From: Anaerolineales bacterium
Lineage (GTDB): Bacteria; Chloroflexota; Anaerolineae; Anaerolineales; UBA4823
DNA length: 64,000 nucleotides
NCBI GenBank assembly: GCA_003105035.1
Contig: PQAL01000036.1
Location: forward strand, 72,499 to 136,498
Direction: 5' to 3'
The position numbers were made by a program, and so were the translations under genes. Within the stretch, counting starts at the first letter, position 1. The number at the start of each line of letters is the position of its first letter. The notes beneath the pieces are model-generated. The model saw nothing but the letters and a program-made list of their open reading frames with translations. It searched no databases and was not told the DNA's origin. Of this stretch, positions 14,319 to 26,381 are shown piece after piece.

Positions 14319-14381
14319 TCAATGGTCGTATTCACTTGTCCGCATACATGAACAGATGTAAACTAACGTCTGGAGGTGAAC

Positions 14382-14786
14382 ATGAGTACAGGAAGAACGC
14401 TTTCATATGTTGCTGCAGTGCTCCTAATCCTCATCGGTGTGGTGTCGCTGTTCATCGGTATCATCTTCATCTGGGGTAGTGCGAGTGCTAATGCTCAACC
14501 AGGTTGGGTGGCCATCGGCCTGGTCTCGGCCGCCATTGGTATCGTCTTGATCGGTGGAGGGGCCTATTTAATATCACTTGCCGGCCGAGGTAAAATGGGA
14601 GCCCCGACACAGAACGTCACGTATAAAGTTGATCTACCAGCCAATGTATCAATGGATACCTTGAAATGCAAATCTTGCGGTGGGTCTTTAACCATGGACA
14701 ATATCACCATGGTTGCTGGTGCACCAGTGGTAAACTGCCCGTATTGTCACAGCACCTATCAATTAACAGAAGAACCTAAATGGTGA
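14382..14786 (+). CDS. small membrane protein: two TM helices plus C-terminal CxxC...CxxC zinc ribbon
   Basis: GGAGG lies 5 nt upstream of ATG 14382 (the track starts at GTG 14376). The hydrophobic helices are LSYVAAVLLILIGVVSLFIGIIFIW and WVAIGLVSAAIGIVLIGGGAYLISL. The C-terminal ribbon reads CKSCGG...CPYCHSTY. Confidence 0.65.
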   Translation: MSTGRTLSYVAAVLLILIGVVSLFIGIIFIWGSASANAQPGWVAIGLVSAAIGIVLIGGGAYLISLAGRGKMGAPTQNVTYKVDLPANVSMDTLKCKSCGGSLTMDNITMVAGAPVVNCPYCHSTYQLTEEPKW

Positions 14787-14847
14787 AATTAATTGTTATT
14801 GAGGTGTCATGACCGGTTCACATAGGAATAGGTTTTCCGGAGGCTAT

Positions 14848-16512
14848 ATGCGTAAACTTTTTATTTCTTTCTCGTTATTATTATGCCTGTTAGTGTGGAT
14901 ATCCTCCCCGGCTCTTGCTCAGACGTATTCCTACACATTACCTAAGGAAACGGTGGATGTTTATTGGAATTCTGACGGCACACTTTCACTGGACTATACC
15001 TATATCTTTACCAACGATCCTTCCGGACCAACAATAGAGTATGTGGATCTTGGTTTACCGAACAACAATTTTTCAATTAACGATATCAGCGCATCCATAA
15101 ACGGCAACCCTGTGTATGATATTTCAACGTCAGGTTTCCAAGGGGAAGGCTGTTGCGGTGTGGCGATCGGCCTTGGTCAGTATTCGGTTCCACCTGGCTC
15201 ATCTGGCACTTTTCAAGCACATGTCAGCAATATTACCGGTGTCCTTGATACCGATACCGAGGATAGCAGCTATGCCAGTGCGGTTTTTGCTCCGAATTAC
15301 TTCGGTGGAAAGATCCATGGCAATACCGATGTGATCGTTACGTTTCATCTGCCCCCCGGGGTTAAACCTGAAGAGCCCAAGTGGCATCCCGCTCCGTCAG
15401 GTTTCCCCGAGACGCCGGTTACAGCGACGGATAGCGAAGGCCGAATTATATATGAATGGGAAAATCAAAATGCTAATGGTCACACATTTTATTTGTTCGG
15501 TGCATCCTTCCCCAAGAGTTACGTACCTGCAGATGCCATCGTAAAGATAGAACCAACAACTCCGTCGGGTTCAAGTGGGCTGAGTAATTTTATAAGCAGT
15601 GCCTTATTGCCTATCTTGTGCATAGGCGGCTTCATCGCCATTGTTGTCAGCGGTATATCATCCAGCCGGAATCGAAAGTTATCATATCTGCCGCCCAAGA
15701 TATCCATTGAGGGTCATGGGATCAAGCGCGGATTGACTGCAGTAGAAGCAGCAATTTTATTGGAAGAACCCCTGGACAAGATCATGACCATGATCCTGTT
15801 TAGCACAATCAAAAAGGAAGCAGCAGAGGTGGTCACGCGCGACCCGCTAGAAGTTAAAGTCTCCGACCCATTGCCAGAAGGTGTCCAATCCTATGAAAAG
15901 GATTTTCTCGAAGCCTTCAAAACCAAAGACCCAGTTGTTCGTCGAAAAGCGATGCGTGATATGGTGGTAAGCCTGGTCAGGAATGTATCGGAAAAAATGA
16001 AGGGGTTCAGCCGACAGGAGACAGTAGCATACTACAAGGACATAACCAAGCGTGCCTGGGAACAGGTGGAAGCTGCAGCGACCCCTGAAGTTAAAAGCGC
16101 GAAGTACGAAGAAGTTATGGAATGGACGATGCTGGACAAGAACTACAATGACCGAACAGAAGATGTATTTCGGCATACACCCGTCTTCATCCCAACCTGG
16201 TGGGGCCATTACGATCCTACGTTTGGTAAGGTTGGGACTTCAGCCGGCGCACCAATCTCAACTGGTGGATCCCATAGTGTCCCAGGTGCGGATTTTGCTG
16301 CTTCGATGGCCGCCGGAGTCCAAACCTTCTCGTCCAAAGCCGTTGGCAGCATCACTGATTTCACCTCCAGCATTACTCAGGTCACAAATCCGCCTCCAAA
16401 ACCTTCAACAAGTACCTACCGAAGCAGCGGAGGTGGTGGGCACAGTTGTGCTTGCGCCTGTGCTTGCGCTTGCGCTGGTTGTGCGTGTGCTTGTGCTGGT
16501 GGCGGTCGTTAG
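14848..16512 (+). CDS. signal-peptide/single-TM, DUF2207-like membrane protein with a C-terminal (Cys-Ala)n tail
   Basis: From M at 14848 the sequence MRKLFISFSLLLCLLVWISSPALA|Q looks like an SPase I signal. The ecto-domain begins YSYTLPKETVDVYWNSDGTLSLDYTYIF (DUF2207-like pattern). One TM helix (LLPILCIGGFIAIVVSGI) is followed by SSSRNRK, consistent with positive-inside. A cytoplasmic domain of about 280 aa (GLTAVEAAILLEEPLDKIMTMILF...) ends in GGGGHSCACACACACAGCACACAGGGR*. Confidence 0.8.
   Translation: MRKLFISFSLLLCLLVWISSPALAQTYSYTLPKETVDVYWNSDGTLSLDYTYIFTNDPSGPTIEYVDLGLPNNNFSINDISASINGNPVYDISTSGFQGEGCCGVAIGLGQYSVPPGSSGTFQAHVSNITGVLDTDTEDSSYASAVFAPNYFGGKIHGNTDVIVTFHLPPGVKPEEPKWHPAPSGFPETPVTATDSEGRIIYEWENQNANGHTFYLFGASFPKSYVPADAIVKIEPTTPSGSSGLSNFISSALLPILCIGGFIAIVVSGISSSRNRKLSYLPPKISIEGHGIKRGLTAVEAAILLEEPLDKIMTMILFSTIKKEAAEVVTRDPLEVKVSDPLPEGVQSYEKDFLEAFKTKDPVVRRKAMRDMVVSLVRNVSEKMKGFSRQETVAYYKDITKRAWEQVEAAATPEVKSAKYEEVMEWTMLDKNYNDRTEDVFRHTPVFIPTWWGHYDPTFGKVGTSAGAPISTGGSHSVPGADFAASMAAGVQTFSSKAVGSITDFTSSITQVTNPPPKPSTSTYRSSGGGGHSCACACACACAGCACACAGGGR
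16447..16497 (+). repeat. coding low-complexity tract (TGY-GCN)5-GGT-(TGY-GCN)3 = CACACACACA-G-CACACA
   Basis: Read directly: tgt gct tgc gcc tgt gct tgc gct tgc gct ggt tgt gcg tgt gct tgt gct. Gly codons flank it, and the stop is at 16510-16512. Confidence 0.95.
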
Positions 16513-16532: not shown

Positions 16533-17918
16533 GTGAATGCCTTTAATTCCCTGATCAAGAAGATCCAGGTCCGGGTTGGGTATAACGATAGGCTTCCTCA
16601 ACCCGGTCTATACCATTATGATCGCCAGGATAATGGTGAGAGATCCCGCATCCATTTACGTGTTGACCCGGATGGTACTGGTTTATTGATCGTGAATGCC
16701 AGCCGGATTATGCATCTCAACCCCACCGCAGCCTCAATGGCTTACCTGATCCTGGAAGACACGCCTCAACAAGCAGCCACACGTTCTCTTGCTCATTTGT
16801 ATCACGCCCGTAAAGAAACAATTGTTAATGACTATGCGCAAACTGCCGAGAAATTGCATGAGCTGATCAGGCCGGATGGTGCCTGCCCCATTCATGAGCT
16901 CGACCTTGAGGTCACGGCACCTTTCTCCACCCGCCCTTCTGCTCCATACCGCATGGACCTGGCTATCACCTACCGTTGTAATAATGATTGCTCTCATTGC
17001 TACAATGCTCGCCCCCGCGATTATCCAGAGCTTTCAACTCGAACCTGGCACCAGGTTCTCGACAAGCTATGGGCGATTGGCATCCCCCACGTGGTATTTA
17101 CCGGCGGAGAGCCTACCCTGCGTAAGGATCTACCTGAGCTGATCGCTCATGCAGAACAAAATGGCCAGATCACAGGGATCAATACGAATGGAAGGCGATT
17201 ATCCGATCGAAATTATGTTGACCGGCTGGTGGAAGCAGGCCTGGATCATGTGCAGATCACGCTCGAATCACATTCTGCAGAGGTCCATGACTCCATGGTC
17301 CACTCGCCTGGTGCCTGGAAACAGACTGTGGCTGGGATCCGCAATGTGCTGGAATCACCTCTTTATGTGATGACCAACACCACGATGCTCACCACGAACA
17401 GCCCCACATTATCCCAAACGCTGGAATTCCTGGCAGAGTTGGGAGTTCCTACGGTTGGCTTGAATGCCTTGATCTACTCTGGTCGGGGTCGAACCGTTGA
17501 TAGTGGCCTGGCTGAAAACAAGCTCCACAGCCTGCTTGAATTGGCCAGGGAGAGCACCAACATTCATCAACAGCGCCTGATCTGGTATACGCCTACCCAA
17601 TATTGCCATTTTGATCCTATGCAGTTTGAATTGGGCGTAAAAGGTTGCACTGCGGCCCTTTATAACATGTGTGTCGAGCCCGATGGTTCAGTTATACCCT
17701 GCCAGTCCTATTATCAATCCCTGGGTAATATCCTATCCAACGAGTGGAAGGATATTTGGAACCACAAACTATCCATACGGCTCCGTGAACGTCAAGACAT
17801 CCCTGAGAAATGTGTACCCTGTTCATTGTTATCAGAGTGTGGGGGTGGCTGCCCCCTGGCAATCATTTCTGGCGAGGCAAATTCGGTTTTAGGAGGAGAA
17901 AATGACCAGCATAATTGA
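16533..17918 (+). CDS. radical SAM/SPASM-domain enzyme with N-terminal PqqD/RRE-like extension
   Basis: The GTG start is supported by N-terminal similarity to the downstream paralogue. The CX3CX2C motif reads AITYRCNNDCSHCYN (Cys codons 16977-17000). The SAM motif is FTGGEPTL. The SPASM pattern is GCTAALYNMCVEPDGSVIPCQ...LGNI...CVPCSLLSECGGGCP. N-terminal residues ~45-95 (GLLIVNASRIMHLNPTAASMAYLILEDTPQQAATRSLAHLY) resemble a PqqD-like peptide-recognition element. Confidence 0.85.
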   Translation: MNAFNSLIKKIQVRVGYNDRLPQPGLYHYDRQDNGERSRIHLRVDPDGTGLLIVNASRIMHLNPTAASMAYLILEDTPQQAATRSLAHLYHARKETIVNDYAQTAEKLHELIRPDGACPIHELDLEVTAPFSTRPSAPYRMDLAITYRCNNDCSHCYNARPRDYPELSTRTWHQVLDKLWAIGIPHVVFTGGEPTLRKDLPELIAHAEQNGQITGINTNGRRLSDRNYVDRLVEAGLDHVQITLESHSAEVHDSMVHSPGAWKQTVAGIRNVLESPLYVMTNTTMLTTNSPTLSQTLEFLAELGVPTVGLNALIYSGRGRTVDSGLAENKLHSLLELARESTNIHQQRLIWYTPTQYCHFDPMQFELGVKGCTAALYNMCVEPDGSVIPCQSYYQSLGNILSNEWKDIWNHKLSIRLRERQDIPEKCVPCSLLSECGGGCPLAIISGEANSVLGGENDQHN

Positions 17919-19050
17919 TTCAATCAAGAGACTCTTCACCAAGGAAACCCCTCTTCCTCCTGGGATTTACCATTATCAGGCTCCGCCTGATGCCCCTACC
18001 CCATACCGCTTGCACCTACGCCTGGAGCCGGATGGGACTGGTCTGCTGATTGTCAATGCATCGACTATCCTGCACCTTAATCAGACTGCGGCGGAACTTG
18101 CCTATCACATGATTATTCAGACCCCTGAAAACCAGGTTGCGGATGAAGTCGTCGCTCGCTACCGGGTAAATCGCCAGCAAGCTCTCCAGGATTATCAATC
18201 TCTTAACGAACGTATCCATACCCTGATCAACACTCCTGATCTCGACCCAGAAATGTTCCTTGATTTCGAACGCACTACCCCACATACTCAAAAAACCTCC
18301 GCACCCTTCCGCCTGGATTGTGCATTAACGTATCGATTACCTGAAGGTGCAATGACAGCTTCTTTTCGCCCTCCCAGGCACATTAACCAGGAGCTGACCA
18401 CCCAGGAGTGGTGCAGCATTTTCGATAAGGCATGGACCGTAGGGATCCCACATATTATCCTTACGGGTGGTGAGCCGACCTTACGAGAAGATTTACCCGC
18501 ATTAATCGCCCACACTGAAGCAAATGGCCAGGTGGTAGGGTTATTGAGTGATGGGTTAATACTGTCGAATAATGCTTACCTCCAAGAACTCCTACAGACC
18601 GGGCTAGATCATTTGATGTTATCTCTTAATCCCGATGATGAGAGATCGTGGCAAGCACTCAATAACGCACTATCCGCTGACCTGTTTGTGGCTGTCCACC
18701 ATACGATGACTCTTCAGAATGCGGATTCAACTCAGCAGATTCTAGAGAAAATTGCGAAAGCAGGCGTAAAAGCCATTTCGCTTACCGCAGCCGACTCAAC
18801 CTTACACGCCCTGTTGGAGACTTCCCGTAATCAAGCAGCTTCATTGGGCATGACACTTATCTGGGATTTACCAGTACCGTATTCTGCCTTCAACCCGATT
18901 GCCCTGGAGGTGCAGGAAGATGAGGTACCAACTGCCGCAGGACAAGCATGGTTATATATCGAACCCGATGGGGATGTTTTACCAGCCCAGGGGGTCAATC
19001 AGGTGCACGGAAATATCCTGCGTGATCCGTGGGATAAACTGTGGCGGTAA
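17902..19050 (+). CDS. radical-SAM-fold paralogue lacking all Fe-S cluster cysteines (probable non-catalytic partner)
   Basis: A strong AGGAGG lies 5 nt upstream of the ATG, and the gene overlaps the preceding gene by 17 nt. It is collinear with the upstream enzyme (PGIYHY, GLLIVNASTILHLNQTAAELAYHMI, SAPFRLD, LTGGEPTLREDLPALIAHTEANGQ, GLDHL). The CX3CX2C position reads ALTYRLPEGAMTASF, the SPASM cysteines are absent, and the whole protein has only 2 Cys. Confidence 0.8.
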   Translation: MTSIIDSIKRLFTKETPLPPGIYHYQAPPDAPTPYRLHLRLEPDGTGLLIVNASTILHLNQTAAELAYHMIIQTPENQVADEVVARYRVNRQQALQDYQSLNERIHTLINTPDLDPEMFLDFERTTPHTQKTSAPFRLDCALTYRLPEGAMTASFRPPRHINQELTTQEWCSIFDKAWTVGIPHIILTGGEPTLREDLPALIAHTEANGQVVGLLSDGLILSNNAYLQELLQTGLDHLMLSLNPDDERSWQALNNALSADLFVAVHHTMTLQNADSTQQILEKIAKAGVKAISLTAADSTLHALLETSRNQAASLGMTLIWDLPVPYSAFNPIALEVQEDEVPTAAGQAWLYIEPDGDVLPAQGVNQVHGNILRDPWDKLWR

Positions 19051-19673
19051 AACAAAAAACTTGCCGCCATCCCAAAAGCCACAGCCACGTTATATGATTG
19101 CTTTTTCCCCAGCATGGGAATAGCTAGCACCTGGTCGCAAAGAGACAGTAAACCAGGGTCTACTCCGCATACTTCATTGCCAACGATTAGAACAAGCGGT
19201 TGCAGTTGGACCGATAATTCCATTTCATATAGAGGGACAGCCTCGGGAGTATCTTCCAATGCCCAAATCCGATATCCCTCTGCTTTCAACCTATCTACCA
19301 ATAACAGGCTGTTATTCGCCTGCGCCCATGGGAGGTTTAATTCCGCCCCCAAGGCAGTCTTGCTGACCCTGGGATTTTCTGGGGTTGGTGTAATCCCGCA
19401 CAGGTGCAGCTTTTTAATCCCGGTACCGTCCGCGGTCCGCAATATTGAACCAACATTCCACGCGCTGCGCACGTTATCTAATAATGCTTCGACCCACCAA
19501 CCATCAAGCGAAGATACCCTTGGGTTTCCTGCGATCGGGTTATCTAGAGATATCGCCAGTTGCATGCTTGACCGGCACAAAGGGCAACGCTTATTCTTTA
19601 ACTGCCCTTGAACCACAGGGAAGCGTAATCTACAGGTGGGATTCAAGCATTCATAAAATTCTATCGCTGACAT
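18999..19673 (-). CDS. SpoU/TrmH-family RNA 2'-O-methyltransferase with N-terminal zinc ribbon
   Basis: CLNPTCRLRF...CPLCRS forms the ribbon. SpoU motifs follow: NVGSILRTADGTG, LVLIVGNEVCGV and IPMLGKKQSYNVAVAFGMA. Confidence 0.8.
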   Translation of the reverse strand: MSAIEFYECLNPTCRLRFPVVQGQLKNKRCPLCRSSMQLAISLDNPIAGNPRVSSLDGWWVEALLDNVRSAWNVGSILRTADGTGIKKLHLCGITPTPENPRVSKTALGAELNLPWAQANNSLLLVDRLKAEGYRIWALEDTPEAVPLYEMELSVQLQPLVLIVGNEVCGVDPGLLSLCDQVLAIPMLGKKQSYNVAVAFGMAASFLFYRHSLSHGSRRIFPCT

Positions 19674-19744: not shown

Positions 19745-20503
19745 ATGGTTTTCTCAATCGCACAATGGCACCAAAGGTACATGCAACAGGCTCAATGGAG
19801 TGCCAGCCTTCGCGCCTACTTATATTCCCGGGTAGGGATGCGACCTTCCACCAAGGTTTTAGATGTGGGTTGTGGCACAGGAGTTTTGGAGAAGGAGCTG
19901 GATAACCGATTCAGGGCCCCCTCGGTTGGCCTTGATATTGCCATAAGCGCCTTGGATTTTGCCCAATCATACTCCCGAGCAAGCCGATTTGTGGCGGGAG
20001 ATGCCTGTTCCATTCCGTTTGCCTCCCAGAGTTTTGATATCACCCAATGCCATTTTTTGCTTTTATGGCTCAAGGATGTTCGTCAGGCATTGTGTGAAAT
20101 GTCTCGCGTTACCCGTTCTATGGGATTCGTTATCGCTCTTTCCGAGCCTGATTACGGCGGCCGGATCGATTACCCCAACGAATTAGTGCAGCTTGGCACC
20201 TGGCAGACGCAAGCCTTACAGCAGCAAGGCGCCAATCCCTTTATCGGCCGGGAGCTACGGGCACTATTCCATGAAGCTGGCTTGATCAATATCGAAACTG
20301 GCGTAATGGGCGGCCAATGGGCGAAGACTGAGCCGAAAAGTGAATTTGGGCTTGAATGGGACGTAGTCTGCTCAGACCTATCCAATAACTCAACCTTTAT
20401 CCAGCAGGCAGACCAATTAAAACAAATTGACCAGCATTCTCGCGATGCTGGTCAAAGGATATTATTTATTCCAACCTTCTATGCGATTGGACAGGTAAGC
20501 TGA
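19745..20503 (+). CDS. class I SAM-dependent methyltransferase
   Basis: Motif I is VLDVGCGTGVL, followed by the post-I acidic residue and the FD.. motif typical of the Methyltransf_11 type. Confidence 0.8.
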   Translation: MVFSIAQWHQRYMQQAQWSASLRAYLYSRVGMRPSTKVLDVGCGTGVLEKELDNRFRAPSVGLDIAISALDFAQSYSRASRFVAGDACSIPFASQSFDITQCHFLLLWLKDVRQALCEMSRVTRSMGFVIALSEPDYGGRIDYPNELVQLGTWQTQALQQQGANPFIGRELRALFHEAGLINIETGVMGGQWAKTEPKSEFGLEWDVVCSDLSNNSTFIQQADQLKQIDQHSRDAGQRILFIPTFYAIGQVS

Positions 20504-20507
20504 TAAT

Positions 20508-20858
20508 CTATTCCTCTGCTGGCAAACCGAGCTCAATTTGGTCACCGTTTATCCGCACCGGGTATGCCGGGATATCCACAAATGCGGGAAGTGCCAATAC
20601 TTTTCCCGTCCGAATATCGAATCGAGCCCCGTGCCTGGGGCAGGTGATCTCATAACCTTCCAGCGTGCCTTCACCGACCGGGCCATCGTCATGTGAACAC
20701 ACATCAGCAATGGCATAATAATTTCCCGCCAAATTGAAAATCACGATAGGTGTGCCATCGATTTCGATGAATAACCGCTGTCCCTGTCCTAATTCTTCGA
20801 TAGTCGCAACTGGAATGAACTCAAGCTTATCCTGCTCGAGCGTCTTATAGTTATACAT
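20508..20858 (-). CDS. Rieske [2Fe-2S] domain protein (last gene of the suf string)
   Basis: The CSHDDG...CPRHGARF Rieske motifs are present in a 116 aa protein. Confidence 0.85.
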   Translation of the reverse strand: MYNYKTLEQDKLEFIPVATIEELGQGQRLFIEIDGTPIVIFNLAGNYYAIADVCSHDDGPVGEGTLEGYEITCPRHGARFDIRTGKVLALPAFVDIPAYPVRINGDQIELGLPAEE

Positions 20859-20860
20859 GC

Positions 20861-21259
20861 TTAGTTGTCAACCAGGTCGTCACTGGCTTCACCCAGGCCG
20901 TAAACCCCTGCCTTGAGTACTTTTAAGGACAGCAGCGCACATTTTAAACGCACCGGTCCGAGCTCGATACCCAGCATGTCCAAGATATCCTGCTTGTTGA
21001 TCTGTTTGACCTCGTCAAGCGTTTTGCCAATTACGCTCTCTGCCAACAAATCAGCTGAGGCTTGCGAGATAGCACATCCATGTCCATCAAAGGCAACTTC
21101 GCTGACCTTGTTATCACCATTGACACGTAAGTCAATGCGAATATGGTCTCCGCATAACGGGTTATCATCCTCAAACGTAATATCGTGCGGTTCCAGAGCA
21201 CCCCTGAAATGCGGATTTTTATACCGGTCTATGATCAATTCGCGATAAAGGTCATCCAT
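20861..21259 (-). CDS. sufU: SufU/IscU-like Fe-S scaffold or sulfur acceptor
   Basis: LYRELIIDRYKNPHFRG, NPLCGD, GHGCAISQAS and RLKCALL are the SufU-type conserved Cys motifs. Confidence 0.85.
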   Translation of the reverse strand: MDDLYRELIIDRYKNPHFRGALEPHDITFEDDNPLCGDHIRIDLRVNGDNKVSEVAFDGHGCAISQASADLLAESVIGKTLDEVKQINKQDILDMLGIELGPVRLKCALLSLKVLKAGVYGLGEASDDLVDN

Positions 21260-21261
21260 AG

Positions 21262-22509
21262 TTATCCAAAGAAACGCTTGACTTCATGTAAGCCGTCGAT
21301 CAACTGGTCGACTTCGCCAAGGGTATTATATAGGTAAAAACTTGCCCGGGTCGTGGCAGCGATGTTGAACTTTTCATGCAGCGGCATGGCACAGTGATGG
21401 CCTGCGCGTACAGCAATCCCTGAACGGTCCAGCACCTGGGCTACATCGTGAGGATGAACGCCCTCAAAGGTAAAGGAGGCTACCCCACCCTTATAGTTGG
21501 CATCCGGTCCAAATACGCGTACTTCTGGGATCTCAGCCAACCGCCGTAGTGCATAAGCAATCAATTCCTTCTCATGCGTAGCGATCTTTTCCATCCCAAT
21601 AGCCTTAACATAGTCGAGTGCGGCATGCAGTCCGATGGCTTCAGCAATCGCGGGTGTGCCAGCTTCAAACTTGTGCGGTAGCTCATTGGGGCTGAAAGAG
21701 CGCAAAAAGACCCGTTTGATCATCTCTCCACCACCGAGGAAGGGGGGCATTTTGTTTAGCAGTTCTGCCTTGCCATACAACACGCCGATACCGGTCGGCC
21801 CACAAACCTTGTGCGACGAAAAAGCCAAAAAATCCGCATCCAAATCCTGCACATCCACCGGGAAATGTGGCACCGATTGAGCACCGTCAATTAAGGCGAC
21901 TGCCCCCGCTCGGTGAGCTAGCTCCACAATTTCCTTCGCCGGATTGATCGTCCCCAGTACGTTGGACATGTGGGTAAAAGCCACCAGCCTTGGCTTTTGT
22001 TCCAGCAACTTTCGATATACATCTAGCTCTAGCAAGCCATCGGGCGTGATGGTGATAAATTCCAGGCGGATGCCTTTCTCAGCTGCCAGGATGTGCCAGG
22101 GAACCAGGTTGGAGTGATGCTCCATTTCAGTCAGGATCACCAGGTCGTCTTCTTTTAAGAAGGTCCTTCCCCAACTATAAGCGACCAGATTAATCGATTC
22201 AGTCGTGTTGCGGGTAAAGATGACCTCCTTGTTGGACCCTGCATGGATAAAATCGGCCACACGTTGCCTTGCACCTTCATACGCTGCAGTAGCTTCTTCT
22301 GCCAGGGTGTGGACCCCCCGGTGAACATTGGCATTATTCAGCTGGTAGTAATCATCCATCGCCCTGATAACCTGGTTTGGTTTTTGGGTGGTTGCGGTGG
22401 AATCAAGGTATACCAGTGGCACTCCAGGCTGAACCTCGCGGCTTAAGATTGGAAAATCCGATCGAATGGCAGTAATATTAAGTGCAGTTTTTGTCGATGG
22501 GCTAATCAT
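21262..22509 (-). CDS. sufS: cysteine desulfurase SufS (class V aminotransferase group II)
   Basis: IRSDFPIL, the PLP lysine motif SSHKVCGPTGIG and the active-site loop RAGHHCAMP are present. Start chosen at ATG 22509 (MISPST...), directly after the stop of the upstream small ORF. The track ORF extends to 22587. Confidence 0.9.
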   Translation of the reverse strand: MISPSTKTALNITAIRSDFPILSREVQPGVPLVYLDSTATTQKPNQVIRAMDDYYQLNNANVHRGVHTLAEEATAAYEGARQRVADFIHAGSNKEVIFTRNTTESINLVAYSWGRTFLKEDDLVILTEMEHHSNLVPWHILAAEKGIRLEFITITPDGLLELDVYRKLLEQKPRLVAFTHMSNVLGTINPAKEIVELAHRAGAVALIDGAQSVPHFPVDVQDLDADFLAFSSHKVCGPTGIGVLYGKAELLNKMPPFLGGGEMIKRVFLRSFSPNELPHKFEAGTPAIAEAIGLHAALDYVKAIGMEKIATHEKELIAYALRRLAEIPEVRVFGPDANYKGGVASFTFEGVHPHDVAQVLDRSGIAVRAGHHCAMPLHEKFNIAATTRASFYLYNTLGEVDQLIDGLHEVKRFFG

Positions 22510-22517
22510 AGGCGTGG

Positions 22518-22802
22518 TTAGGCAATTGTCCGTGGTTTTGTTCGCCGGCGCGATGGGCGGATTTGGGTAGAATTCTTCGGGCACCATAGGACATGATCCG
22601 GTACCATCCAGCCATCCGTAAGATAGACGCTATCCTTGAATTGAACGGCGATCATTTTTGGATCAACTTGCACCACAGTACCCTCCAGCCAATCGCGGAT
22701 TCGCTCATTTGACTTATCGTGATCGCAATATACTTCAACCCTGTCTCCAACATGGTACTGTTCCTCAAGGTCAGGTGCGTGTGTGAAATACATCTCAGCC
22801 AA
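22518..22802 (-). CDS. hypothetical small protein inside the suf operon (possible SH3/Tudor-like beta fold)
   Basis: 94-aa ORF filling the sufD-sufS gap, with AAGGAGG just upstream. I recognise no family. Confidence 0.5.
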   Translation of the reverse strand: MAEMYFTHAPDLEEQYHVGDRVEVYCDHDKSNERIRDWLEGTVVQVDPKMIAVQFKDSVYLTDGWMVPDHVLWCPKNSTQIRPSRRRTKPRTIA

Positions 22803-22822
22803 CTTTCCTCCTTAGATCCTGC

Positions 22823-24181
22823 TTACTTCATCTTTACAACAATAGCATCTTGAAATCGCTTACGAACGCCTTCAAAAGGGATACGTTGCATGATCGGATC
22901 GAAAAAGCCCTCCACGATCAGATGCTCCGCTTCTGCATACGGGATCCCCCGGCTTAATAAGTAAAATAACGAATCCTGATCTATCTTCCCGACGGTTGCC
23001 CCGTGTGTACAGCGCACATCATCCGCCAGGATCTCCAACCCTGGGATGGAATCAGCGCGAGCCTTGGAGCTCAGCACCAGGTTCCGATTCGCCTGGTAAC
23101 CATCCGTCTTTTGTGCACCCGGTGCCACATAAATCATTCCCTGCCATACCGATCGGCTGCTGTCTTTCAATGCGCCTTTGAATAACAAGTCGCTAGTGGT
23201 GTGCGGAGCAAGGTGGTTCTGTTGGGTATCATGGTCCAGGTGTTGCTTTCCATCAGTAAAGTAAAAACCCGACATTTTCCCTGTCGCACCATCACCAATC
23301 AAGTCGATCTCAGAAAAATTCTTGGTCAGGTTGCTCCCTAAGGCTCCGAAAATCCATTCCAGGGTAGCCTCCCTTCCCACTTGGGCACGCTCATGGCTGA
23401 AATTCCATACATTGTCTCCCCAGGATTGTAGCTCCACGAACCGCAGACTGGCATTATCGCTTATATGTATCTCCACAATGCCCGAATGCATCGTTTGACC
23501 AGGGATTCCATTGGGAGAGGCAGCTTCATGCACATACGTCAACGAAGAGCCAGGCTCCAACCACACCATGATATGTGAAAAATATGCTAATCCTTCCCCC
23601 GGTCCCCAAATCACTGAGTGAAGGGGCACCTCAACCTGTACCCCCGCGGGGATGTAGGCAAACACGCCATACTGCTCCATGGCAGCCGTAAGTGCTGCAA
23701 ACCTGCCTTCTTCAGGCTTGACCACCTGGCCAATAATATTCGCCAATAATTCAGGATATTCTCGCTCAGCTGTATGCAGGTCGGTGAAAATCACGCCCTG
23801 GCGGGTCAATGCCTCATCAACTTTAACCTTCGTATGCTTCGGTTCGATGATCACCTGCCCACCATGCTTCTTGGTGACCAGAGGTTTAAGCAACCAGCTC
23901 GGTGCGGGAGGCAGTGTCGGGTGTTGGCTTCCATTGGGTACGGTAAATTTAGCAACATCCAGGCCGCGTATATCTGTCCTGCGCCATGGTTCGTCCTTAA
24001 TCGTCGGCATGTGCAGGGATTGGTAGAGCGCCCAGGCTTTCTCCCGGTAATCCCTAACAAAGTCCGGGCCTGCCCAATTGCTGGAAAGCGTTTTAATCGA
24101 GTCGCGTGTAAATTGAAAATCACCGGGCTCAGCGCTTACGGTGGGTTTATTACGCGTGATTATCCGGTGTGTGCTCATCAT
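22823..24181 (-). CDS. sufD: Fe-S cluster assembly protein SufD
   Basis: 452 aa with the C-terminal beta-helix pattern ([29 protein letters not shown]...LFYLLSRGI). The 4-nt start overlap with sufB fits SufD. Confidence 0.9.
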
Positions 24182-25584
24182 CCCACCGATCCTGCCATCT
24201 GAAGTTGGATTAGTCGGTTCATCTCTATGGCGTATTCCATCGGCAATTCTTTCACCAATGGCTCAATGAAGCCTGAAACTACCATGGTTGTCGATTCTTC
24301 CTCCGATAAACCCCGGCTCATCAGGTAGAACAGCTGCTCTTCACCTACCTTCGATACGGTTGCTTCATGTCCGATGGTCACATCCTGTTCATCGATCTCA
24401 ATCGATGGGTAAGTATCTGATCGCGACAACGGGTCGAGCAGCAATGCATCGCACACCGTGTTGGATTTACTATCGACGGCTCCCTTATAGACCTTCAATA
24501 AACCCCTGAAAGAGGTTCGTCCACCACCCTTGCTGATCGATTTTGAGGTGATCTTGCTTGAGGTGTGCGGGGCAAAATGGATCGCTTTGCCACCTGCGTC
24601 TTGCGTCTGCCCAGGTCCGGCAAATGCCATAGACAGGATTTCACCCTTCGCACCAGGTTCAAGCAGGTAGCAGGATGGGTATTTCATTGTTAGCTTCGAA
24701 CCCAGGTTCGAATCCACCCACTCCATCGTCCCGCCTTCATGCACCAGAGCCCGCTGGGTTACCAGGTTATACACGTTGGTAGACCAGTTCTGGATGGTGG
24801 TGTAGCGAACCCGGGCACCTTTGTTGACGATGATCTCGATCACACCACTGTGCAGCGAATCTGTCGTATATGTAGGCGCTGTGCAGCCTTCAACGTAATG
24901 CACCTGCGCGCCTTCATCGGCGATGATCAATGAGCGCTCGAACTGCCCGATATTAGCAACATTTAAGCGGAAGTAAGCTTGCAGGGGCAGGTCAACTTTG
25001 ACGCCTTTGGGCACGTAAACAAACGAGCCACCAGACCACACCGCGCTGTTCAATGCGGCGAATTTATTATCTTCGATCGGAATGACTTTACCGAAATACT
25101 GCTTAAAGATATCAGGGTGCTTCCGTAACCCGTCTTCAATGCTCAGGAAAATTACACCCTGTTTTTCGAGGTGCTCCTGGATGTTGTGGTAAACCATCTC
25201 GCTTTCGTATTGGGCACCTACACCAGCCAGGAATTTTTGCTCTGCTTCAGGGATGCCGAGCTTGTTAAAAGTATCCTTGATGGTGTTTGGCACCTCATCC
25301 CAGTTCTTGCTTTCCTGCTGAGTTGGCTTGACATAATAGAATATCTCATGTAGATTAAGGCCTGAAAGGTCACCGCCCCATGTTGGGATGGGTCGTTTTT
25401 CAAAGTGCTCCAGGGCTTTCAAGCGGAAATCCAACATCCATTGGGGCTCGCCCTTCATATCGGATATCTGCTCAACTACCCTTTTCGATAAGCCCTTGCG
25501 TGATTTAAAAACGTAGGTTTCCGGATCACTGAAACCGTACTTGTAATCACCAATATTATCCAAAGTATTTGAGTTCGAGCTCAT
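24178..25584 (-). CDS. sufB: Fe-S cluster assembly protein SufB
   Basis: [23 protein letters not shown], and [11 protein letters not shown]...[24 protein letters not shown] match SufB. Start set at ATG 25584 (GAGGT 4 nt upstream), because the track start at 25644 would overlap sufC. Confidence 0.95.
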
Positions 25585-25607
25585 ATCAACCTCTAAAATC
25601 ACCTGGC

Positions 25608-26381
25608 TCAGGCTGGCACCGTCTCGTATTTCTCGCGCACCCACTCGTAGCCGTGCTCCTCAAGGTTCAACGCCAGGTCTGAGCCGCCTGACTCGACGAT
25701 GCGCCCATCCAGCATGATATGTACGAATTCCGGTTTAATGTAGTTTAGAATGCGTTGGTAATGGGTAATCACCAGTACACCCATCTCGGGACCGCGCAGG
25801 GTGTTAACCCCTTCCGATACGATCCGTAAGGCATCGATATCCAGGCCCGAATCAGTTTCATCCAGGATGGCGATCTCTGGCTTTAACACAGCCATCTGCA
25901 GGATCTCTGCCCGCTTTTTCTCACCCCCAGAAAAGCCTTCATTTAGATAGCGACTTGCAAAGGAGTAATCCATCTTGAGCAAATCCATGCGATCCTTGAG
26001 CATCTTGCGAAATTCCGGCACCGAGATGCCCTTATCTTCCGGGTTTAAGGCCTTCCTGCGAGCGTTAATTGCCGTGCGCAGGAAATTTGCCACCGATACA
26101 CCGGCAATCGATACCGGGTACTGGAAAGCCAGGAAAATGCCCAACCTCGATCTCTCATCAGGTTTCAGCTCAAGGATATTGGTATCCTTAAAAAGCACTT
26201 CGCCTTGAGTCACCAAATAACCGGGATGCCCCATCAGTGTATAAGCTAATGTCGATTTTCCTGTTCCATTGGGACCCATCAGGGCATGTACTTCACCTTG
26301 ATTGACGGTCAGGTTGACACCTTTTAGGATTTCGCGCCCCGCGACATTAACATGCAAGTCCCGAATGTTGATCTCAGACAT
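25608..26381 (-). CDS. sufC: Fe-S cluster assembly ATPase SufC
   Basis: [10 protein letters not shown], the SGGEKKR signature, [14 protein letters not shown] and ITHY match SufC. Confidence 0.95.

Follow-up and report, generated by a model that had tools for sequence, protein, structure and literature searches.

An invariant Cys-Ala tail on a membrane protein from Anaerolineales, a candidate substrate of the adjacent radical SAM enzyme

The analysed stretch of DNA (64,000 nt of contig PQAL01000036.1 from an Anaerolineales bacterium, in the following referred to as the window) encodes a 554-residue single-pass membrane protein, the final 21 residues of which (CACACACACAGCACACAGGGR, 16447-16509, + strand) form a tail of alternating cysteine and alanine residues. 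Since the core of this tail is letter-identical from soil bacteria to Asgard archaea and its gene is almost always located directly upstream of a gene for a radical S-adenosylmethionine (SAM) enzyme, the tail is probably a substrate of the latter (rSAM1). The best explanation at present, to which we assign a probability of about one half, is that the tail represents the core peptide of rSAM1 and is cross-linked into Cys-Ala thioethers, staying on the membrane protein. Radical SAM/SPASM enzymes bearing an RRE (RiPP recognition element, RiPPs being peptides that are made on ribosomes and modified after translation) are known for the maturation of small, hypervariable, secreted peptides; here, the same enzyme architecture is found beside a leader-linker-core segment kept within a large membrane protein. 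Functional statements made below rest on comparative genomics and predicted structures.

Conservation of the Cys-Ala core

The tail-bearing protein is encoded at 14848..16512 (+) by an open reading frame (ORF) with an alternative ATG at 14809 (567 residues); the database copy begins at the second ATG and accordingly comprises 554 residues. The Cys-Ala tract is in frame with this ORF (14809/14848..16512), and the core (CACACACACA-G-CACACA-GGGR, 16447..16509, +) is composed of 5+3 Cys-Ala units (8 Cys in all) and directly adjoins the stop codon (16510-16512). On the DNA level it consists of five TGY-GCN units (tgt gct, tgc gcc, tgt gct and twice tgc gct), a single ggt, three further TGY-GCN units (tgt gcg and twice tgt gct) and the terminal ggt ggc ggt cgt, then tag. 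This agrees with the original prediction, made from the sequence of the window, with respect to both the order of units and the end of the protein 4 residues past the last Cys-Ala unit. Flanked by SSGGGGHS on its N-terminal and by GGG on its C-terminal side, the run contains 8 Cys per 17 residues. It is not due to chance, considering (i) the rarity of Cys (1.2 % of residues in the long ORFs of the window; probability of CACACACACA ~9e-16 per position), (ii) its uniqueness in the window, since a scan of all reading frames revealed no other comparable (C-x)n run unbroken by stops or random residues, and (iii) its conservation in 397 homolog tails.

Among the best database homologs (63–100 % identity to the window protein), 120 of 120 have CACACACAGCACACAGGGR as C-terminal end. 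In addition, 54 genome loci were fetched by protein similarity (41–77 % identity to the window protein), and every genome locus reaching the 3' end of the gene codes for at least CACACAGCACACAGGGR, i.e., the last 17 residues, followed by a stop codon. These 17 residues are identical in 55 of 55 tails (window and first 54 genome loci) and also in at least 120 loci from more than 10 phyla matched by a DNA pattern; between Chloroflexota and Asgard archaea, the core is not changed by any residue. Among the 176 copies of this 17-residue core in all loci collected, 169 distinct 51-nt versions are present, with a third-codon-position identity of 0.40. In the 55 tails, TGT and TGC are used near-evenly at each Cys position (19–36 of 55 each way), Ala and Gly positions use all four codons, and the last-position Arg uses all six. 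Since 169 DNA versions with near-saturated synonymous sites encode one identical peptide, the core is selected at the protein level, as proposed in the original prediction. These patterns indicate strong purifying selection on the tail peptide and a repeat that is not maintained by slippage.

The 397 tails are arranged as 4+3 (260 tails), 5+3 as in the window (92), 3+3 (26) or 3+4 Cys-Ala units (8), besides rare three-block or single-block forms. The second block has 3 units in 379 of the 397 tails, the spacer and the GGGR end are almost always retained, and length change is confined to the first block (3, 4 or 5 units, differing between lineages). Thus, the in-frame gain or loss of 6-nt units formerly regarded as conceivable is mostly refuted: comparison of repeat numbers across relatives revealed a near-fixed second block, spacer and GGGR end, and only the first block, with its 3–5 units, varies between lineages. 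Ala to Val is the sole substitution seen within the blocks, and the junction Gly may be Ser, Val-Ser or Asp-Ser. In a few database entries, the tract appears in a different reading frame; such frameshifted cases are rare, still keep the tail codons, and some of them originate from 'MFD' assemblies of metagenome-assembled genomes (MAGs), which we assume to be based on long reads and prone to indels. A close homolog without the tail (P0231) ends in acidic DGGHDGG instead; its locus was not found among the genome or metagenome contigs.

With a degenerate DNA pattern representing the core, one genome of each GTDB species was scanned, yielding the above-mentioned loci (at least 120) and a list of taxa that represents a lower bound. 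Matches were obtained in (i) Anaerolineae, including the cultured Ornatilinea apprima and Leptolinea sp. HRD-7, (ii) Candidatus Sabulitectum, Hyd24-12, Zixibacteria, Coatesbacteria and Edwardsbacteria, (iii) Acidobacteriota, Aminicenantes, Planctomycetota, a delta-proteobacterial MAG and Clostridia MAGs, and (iv) the archaeal Heimdall-, Hod- and Promethearchaeota; many MAG taxon labels may be imprecise (e.g., contigs binned as Gallionella, Bacteroidota or Microthrixaceae). Carrier lineages such as Anaerolineae, Acidobacteriota/Aminicenantes, Zixibacteria, Fermentibacteria, Planctomycetota, Asgard archaea and Nitrososphaeria are presumably mostly anaerobic. Each intact tail-bearing ORF is homologous to the window protein along its length, down to the 25–28 % identity observed in Asgard archaea. 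Since all of them belong to this one family, the tail is a hallmark of that family; a portable C-terminal tag on unrelated proteins, also considered, is ruled out by the pattern scan, the listed matches of which are members of this family. An exhaustive search of representatives retrieved 839 cluster representatives (E ≤ 0.001), of which nearly all full-length ones bear the tail or a variant; a family member from Nitrososphaeria ends in CVCACVSCACVCACVSCACACAGGGAG. Tail genes may also occur repeatedly in one locus: a 255-residue paralog composed of the transmembrane (TM) helix, the cytoplasmic domain and an identical CACACACAGCACACAGGGR tail, without ectodomain, separates the full-length tail gene from rSAM1 in one case (L024:7684-8451), tandem full-length duplicates are found in another (L141), and a third has a second tail at the chunk edge (L128).

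Membrane protein and adjoining radical SAM enzymes

The tail-bearing protein is laid out as signal peptide, β-sandwich ectodomain, one TM helix, cytoplasmic helical domain, leader-like element, linker and core. Its AlphaFold2 model (me67aa2dbf7c4, window 14848-16509), based on a 76-sequence alignment, has a mean predicted local distance difference test score (pLDDT) of 86.7 and displays the β-sandwich at residues 29-222 (strands), the TM helix at 242-278, followed by Arg/Lys, and the helical domain at 283-513; residues 528-554 are disordered (pLDDT <50). The predicted topology places the tail in the cytoplasm, where it should therefore be reachable by a cytoplasmic enzyme.

The conserved leader-like element (residues 480-517, GADFAASMAAGVQTFSSKAVGSITDFTSSITQVTNPPP, 16285..16398, +) consists of two helices ending in N-P-x-P, modelled at residues 480-499 and 502-513 (10-residue blocks over 481-520 average pLDDT 86–92). 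Cross-phylum alignment yielded the consensus F-T-x-x-V-T-x-x-T-N-P-x-P (window residues ~502-517, with a PGADFA helix before), which is kept across phyla including archaea and contains the nearly invariant P515. The RRE may dock on this element. Next comes a linker rich in Gly and Ser (residues 518-533, KPSTSTYRSSGGGGHS, 16399..16446, +), which varies between homologs: P-x-P motif and first Cys are mostly 11–21 residues apart (mode 18), and the 14 residues preceding the core are 43 % Gly and 27 % Ser (70 % together). Linker and core form a single tryptic peptide (SSGGGGHSCACACACACAGCACACAGGGR). Overall, the C-terminal region has the arrangement of a RiPP precursor (leader-linker-core) fused to a large protein.

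Database comparisons revealed little about the membrane protein. Searches against Pfam yielded no family at E ≤ 0.01 (for the halves of the protein none at E ≤ 1 apart from noise), and those against NCBIfam, including the SCIFF (TIGR03973), ACGX-repeat (TIGR04341) and HxsD models, and PADLOC no family either. The earlier label "DUF2207-type" amounts to a remote resemblance only, 7 of 76 relatives weakly matching DUF2207_C (best E=1.2e-4) and the Ornatilinea ortholog carrying the automatic UniRef label "DUF2207 domain-containing" (RefSeq: "hypothetical protein"); the window protein itself has no match to PF09972/PF20990 at gathering score. With the DUF2207 proteins it shares the plan of signal peptide, β-sandwich ectodomain, TM region, cytoplasmic part and Gly-rich C-terminus, and the tail family is regarded as an uncharacterised, remote relative of these. 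To our knowledge, neither the Cys-Ala core nor an obligatory radical SAM neighbour is a feature of DUF2207 proper.

A PDB sequence search with the tail protein yielded noise only, and the best PDB matches of a fold search were ribophorin I/OST1 subunits of the eukaryotic oligosaccharyltransferase (8b6l_O, 6s7o_E, 6ezn_A; TM-score ~0.24); the ectodomain also resembles the N-domain sandwich of M1 aminopeptidases with a low TM-score. Ribophorin I/OST1 shares the plan of a β-sandwich ectodomain and a single TM helix with the tail protein. This likeness is curious given the presence of the family in Asgard archaea, and may reflect nothing beyond generic sandwich similarity.

The gene for rSAM1 (16533..17918, +) starts 20 nt past the stop codon of the tail gene, and its product, the proposed tail maturase, combines a PqqD-like RRE N-terminus (residues ~20-112) with a radical SAM core and a SPASM domain (Pfam: Radical_SAM 1.7e-27, PF13186 8.7e-9, PqqD 0.002). 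The cluster motif C149-x3-C153-x2-C156 is present and invariant, and so are the SPASM cysteines C358, C372, C380, C390, C427, C430, C436 and C440, including CX2CX5CX3C. PF05402 is precomputed on several rSAM1 orthologs; the database names of rSAM1 relatives are generic. The best PDB sequence match is SkfB (residues 29-418), followed by BlsE and PqqE. The AlphaFold2 model of rSAM1 is moderate (pLDDT 64), its N-domain being formed by a β-sheet and three helices (10-residue-block means of 66–91), and Foldseek again ranks SkfB first, with PqqE, SuiB and CteB also among the top matches and SuiB and CteB aligning over most of the length. Each of these lines is moderate; together they are convincing in predicting the N-domain to be an RRE. 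No NCBIfam model reaches its cut-off with rSAM1 (SkfB 94.6 vs 300, StsB 87.9 vs 625), nor does any with its archaeal ortholog from L175 (AlbA 68.2 vs 850), and AlbA likewise scores below cut-off with the variant enzyme of L107 (84.3 vs 850); sactisynthases are not favoured over PqqE, NirJ or AhbD-like models. The linker between RRE and radical SAM core of rSAM1 contains an invariant Cys118-Pro-Ile-His121 (window 16884-16895), the place of which is taken by Cys-Ala-Thr-Cys and Cys-Tyr-Thr-Cys in the variant enzymes of L107 and L131, respectively, and which may represent an extra metal or cluster ligand pair.

A lipid synthase of the Gms/Tes type was considered for rSAM1 and rejected. The SPASM radical SAM enzyme Gms acts on membrane lipids, has a six-helix lipid-binding N-domain cap and is restricted to archaea (PMC11186832). 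Such an identity is unlikely, since the N-domain of rSAM1 (β-sheet and three helices) differs from this helical cap; with GDGT-MAS, a Tes relative among the PDB matches, the radical SAM core alone aligns.

The paralog rSAM2 (17902..19050, +), the gene of which shares its first 17 nt with the end of rSAM1, combines an RRE-like N-terminus with a radical SAM fold (Pfam: Radical_SAM 1.4e-8, PqqD 0.0013). It contains 2 Cys in total and lacks both CxxxCxxC and the SPASM cysteines. Restricted to cassettes of Chloroflexota, it is probably a non-catalytic partner.

Synteny was assessed for those tail occurrences whose contigs extend at least 1.5 kb further downstream; these 149 are not fully independent, some contigs having been fetched twice. 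In 132 of these, from Bacteria and Archaea, rSAM1 is encoded on the same strand at most 1 kb downstream; an rSAM2-like gene directly follows the tail gene instead in 8, tandem paralogs or insertions account for 3, and no radical SAM gene is in reach in 6. The order tail protein, rSAM1 and methyltransferase recurs in Asgard archaea, Coatesbacteria, Zixibacteria, Acidobacteriota and Sabulitectum, and that of tail protein and radical SAM enzyme also in loci of Nitrososphaeria and Fermentibacteria; it persists with a three-block, Val-containing variant of the tail. Divergence from the window copies is correlated between tail protein and rSAM1 (Spearman 0.59, n=124). The neighbour tabulation for the tail motif envisaged in the original prediction thus led to a single protein family with rSAM1 beside the great majority of its genes, and the supposed link of the tail to the adjacent radical SAM enzyme is borne out as far as comparative genomics goes. 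The cassette comprises no conserved protease or transporter/exporter across the loci compared.

Two groups of loci depart from this pattern. In a clade of unclassified, GC-rich-looking bacteria (L059, L078, L092), which accounts for three of the 6 tail loci lacking a radical SAM gene in reach, the tail gene is not followed by such a gene; a convergent S15 X-Pro dipeptidyl-peptidase is present instead, in L078 together with a PMT_2 glycosyltransferase-like membrane protein, and the tail genes of L059 and L078 keep the zinc-ribbon partner described below. A sister system (L107:2062-5191, L131:2783-5433) is built around a divergent RRE-radical SAM-SPASM enzyme (39–42 % identical to rSAM1), which bears a C-terminal extension of its own containing GGGCSGCSGSCGTGG and is followed by a short membrane paralog ending right after the leader-like helix. 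In addition, both loci contain a tail gene of the canonical kind with the pseudo-rSAM gene after it, on the other strand.

Proposed modification, alternatives and relation to known systems

According to the preferred explanation, the membrane protein would be inserted so that its β-sandwich faces outward while helical domain and tail remain in the cytoplasm, as suggested by topology and model. The RRE of rSAM1 would then dock on the F..VT..TNP.P element ~20 residues upstream of the core, and the flexible Gly/Ser linker would let the disordered core thread into the radical SAM/SPASM active site, where 5'-deoxyadenosyl radical chemistry would alter it covalently. The likeliest products would be intramolecular thioethers between Cys sulfur and Ala carbon, sactionine- or ranthionine-type and at the extreme lanthionine-like. 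In Chloroflexota, the catalytically dead paralog with its RRE probably acts as a scaffold; more speculatively, the conserved methyltransferase may add a methyl group. The modified tail would finally serve the function of the membrane protein. A substrate role is suggested by the dedicated radical SAM enzyme adjoining the tail gene in Bacteria and Archaea alike, the leader-linker-core layout, the disordered free C-terminus and the invariance of both Cys and Ala. A thioether ladder is favoured as a hypothesis because the nearest characterised enzymes, SkfB and CteB, form Cys thioethers, and bridges from Cys to Ala would account for the equally strict conservation of both residues.

Several points weigh against this explanation. 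RiPP cores normally vary, and a core frozen in this way would rather be expected of a cofactor or metal site; the cassette is devoid of protease and exporter, and a 554-residue membrane protein is an atypical RRE client. The eight conserved SPASM cysteines could ligate both auxiliary clusters fully, and the open iron site reported for the sactisynthase CteB is not evident in the rSAM1 sequence. The PqqD match of rSAM1 is under the Pfam gathering score, and the model of rSAM1 reaches only a moderate pLDDT (64). To these add the 6 tail occurrences without a radical SAM gene in reach and the sister system, in which the Cys-rich segment resides on the enzyme and the membrane paralog has no Cys tail.

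It is less likely, although several observations would fit, that the tail escapes covalent modification and is instead a metal-, Fe-S- or sulfur-binding module, similar to a metallothionein or a cluster scaffold. In this case, Cu, Zn, Fe-S or persulfide would be bound by the tail thiolates, and the radical SAM enzyme would be coupled otherwise: either tethered to the membrane by RRE-leader docking and contacts with the tail cluster, acting on a lipid or small molecule, or receiving clusters from the tail or donating them. A redox sensor, the further role raised in the original prediction, would likewise be conceivable. The 6–8 Cys in CxC spacing resemble fungal Cu-metallothionein and CopY-type CxC sites, and such complete invariance of the sequence is what cofactor or metal sites typically show. 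Likewise compatible are the GGGCSGCSGSCGTGG segment carried by the sister enzyme itself, beside a tail-less membrane paralog, and the tail genes without adjoining radical SAM gene. However, Ala is as invariant as Cys in the tail, whereas the X residues vary in known CxC metal sites, and a pure metal site would need no dedicated radical SAM enzyme beside ~90 % of loci in two domains of life. Lipid-acting SPASM radical SAM enzymes do exist (Gms, PMC11186832; GDGT-MAS among the PDB matches), but the N-domain of rSAM1 is RRE-like and not a six-helix Gms cap. Moreover, suf genes for Fe-S assembly adjoin the cassette in close relatives only.

A substrate role of the tail with chemistry other than thioether formation is improbable. 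Options would include anSME-like conversion of Cys to formylglycine or thioaldehyde, a Cys heterocycle or thioamide, C- or S-methylation with the methyltransferase, or a redox cofactor similar to QhpC/CTQ. Synteny and enzyme architecture agree with this option as they do with the thioether ladder, and the eight invariant SPASM cysteines are compatible with fully ligated auxiliary clusters as present in anSME, SuiB and PqqE; a methyltransferase is conserved in the cassette, and the NCBIfam scores do not favour sactisynthases. Strict conservation of Ala would, however, be harder to explain if Cys alone were modified. The notion of a hypermutable hexanucleotide microsatellite (contingency locus) or a functionless low-complexity gene end can practically be dismissed. 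Tandem Repeats Finder does report a period-6 array of 9.8 copies (besides period 21, 2 copies), the first block differs by whole Cys-Ala units between lineages, and a few entries are in the other frame. Yet the repeats are imperfect (73 % matches at period 6), the longest perfect hexamer run has 2.5 copies, the second block, spacer Gly and GGGR are near-fixed in the 397 tails, the same 17 residues are encoded by 169 DNA sequences, and the rare frameshifted cases keep the tail codons. A microsatellite or phase-variation locus is ruled out by the imperfect hexamers and the fixed core.

In a more far-reaching reading, which is plausible although less than even in probability, the dedicated radical SAM enzyme would turn the frozen (Cys-Ala)n end into a protein-bound poly-thioether ladder (possibly with radical-made bridges of lanthionine type) or into a new protein-derived metallo- or redox cofactor. 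RiPP-style chemistry would then serve as a housekeeping modification of a full-length membrane protein and not yield a secreted product.

Cys-rich C-terminal cores beside RRE-radical SAM-SPASM enzymes are likewise present in the SCIFF system CteA-CteB, in SkfA-SkfB and in PapA-PapB (freyrasin), SkfB being the best sequence and fold match of rSAM1; in PapA, a short repeated motif is converted to a ladder of thioethers. The substrates of sacti- and ranthipeptide enzymes are, however, peptides of ~45 residues with hypervariable cores, whereas the Cys-Ala core is invariant across two domains of life and resides on the tail of a 554-residue membrane protein, which is not a short released precursor; unlike those systems, it offers only Ala, Gly or Cys as possible acceptors. 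Proteins that are modified by a radical SAM/SPASM enzyme and stay functional proteins are known from the pairs QhpC-QhpD and anSME-sulfatase, with intraprotein Cys thioethers in QhpC and conversion of Cys/Ser to formylglycine in sulfatases. These pairs have no sequence relationship to the present system, which differs by its low-complexity terminal repeat, its membrane protein and the combination of an RRE with a leader-like element.

Short residue-repeat targets together with SPASM radical SAM enzymes, sometimes with a second, rSAM-like partner, also characterise the Haft-type cassettes (ACGX-repeat/TIGR04340, His-Xaa-Ser HxsBC, GeoRSP), and TIGR04347, found among the weak NCBIfam matches, provides a precedent for pseudo-rSAM proteins. 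All of these models score below cut-off here, and the Cys-Ala alternation is arranged in two blocks, differs from ACGX or HXS and is located on a large DUF2207-like protein. Dense C-x-C cysteines at a flexible terminus, as in this tail with 8 Cys in 17 residues, are shared with metallothioneins and CopY (CxCxxxxCxC at the C-terminus according to the literature). Unlike in these, X is fixed as Ala, the motif is on a membrane protein, and a radical SAM partner is present in most loci.

Among about 8 million full-text papers and preprints, none was found to contain the motif string, to combine DUF2207 with radical SAM, or to describe a comparable Cys-Ala repeat, and the general surveys of radical SAM-dependent RiPPs consulted do not mention a Cys-Ala tail system. 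The enzyme class and the idea of a radical SAM enzyme with a Cys-rich target are already known; the combination of protein-tethered substrate, frozen core, range across Bacteria and Archaea and pseudo-rSAM partner appears to be undescribed. If the tail is modified, it would represent a new class of protein-tethered radical SAM modification, possibly with a new thioether type, since Ala and Gly are the only acceptors available. This would provide the first functional handle on the widespread DUF2207-like family, which is apparently near-universal in Anaerolineae. The compact operon and the cultured carriers O. apprima (WP_075064617.1) and Leptolinea sp. HRD-7 (BCY18966.1) render the system tractable. 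For curators, it offers a clean pair of radical SAM enzyme and target which no current NCBIfam or Pfam model captures.

Further genes of the cassette

The cassette genes on the + strand overlap or follow one another closely, and terminator-like sites were not found between them. Downstream of the radical SAM genes, a class I SAM-dependent methyltransferase is encoded (Methyltransf_11, Pfam 1.4e-18; 19745..20503, +), for which no NCBIfam model reaches cut-off (nearest: BioC, DVU_1556 and UbiE). In most other lineages, including Asgard archaea, it directly follows the radical SAM genes, suggesting that it belongs to the pathway. In the window, a SpoU-family RNA methyltransferase gene (18999-19673, - strand) is located between rSAM2 and the methyltransferase, overlapping the 3' end of rSAM2 by ~50 nt; this antisense gene is found at that place in close relatives only.

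Just downstream of the methyltransferase, genes for a Rieske-type ferredoxin and for SufU-, SufS- and SufD-like proteins follow on the - strand (20508-25644; identities from translations). Homologs of Rieske, SufU and SufS adjoin the cassette in close relatives only (L001-L013, L019, L086, L133). Due to this confinement, the adjacency looks incidental, and a link to suf-dependent Fe-S assembly is ruled out as a conserved feature.

The product of the first cassette gene (14376..14786, +) is a small membrane protein that has two TM helices, carries a CxxC...CxxC zinc ribbon on the cytoplasmic side and weakly matches DUF7559. In Nitrososphaeria and most bacterial loci, its gene immediately precedes the tail gene. 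The zinc-ribbon protein ends in EEPKW (window 14772-14786), with TEQPKW, QEEPKW and SEEPLW in other phyla, and the same pentapeptide occurs within KPEEPKWH in the ectodomain of the adjoining tail protein (~15373-15393).

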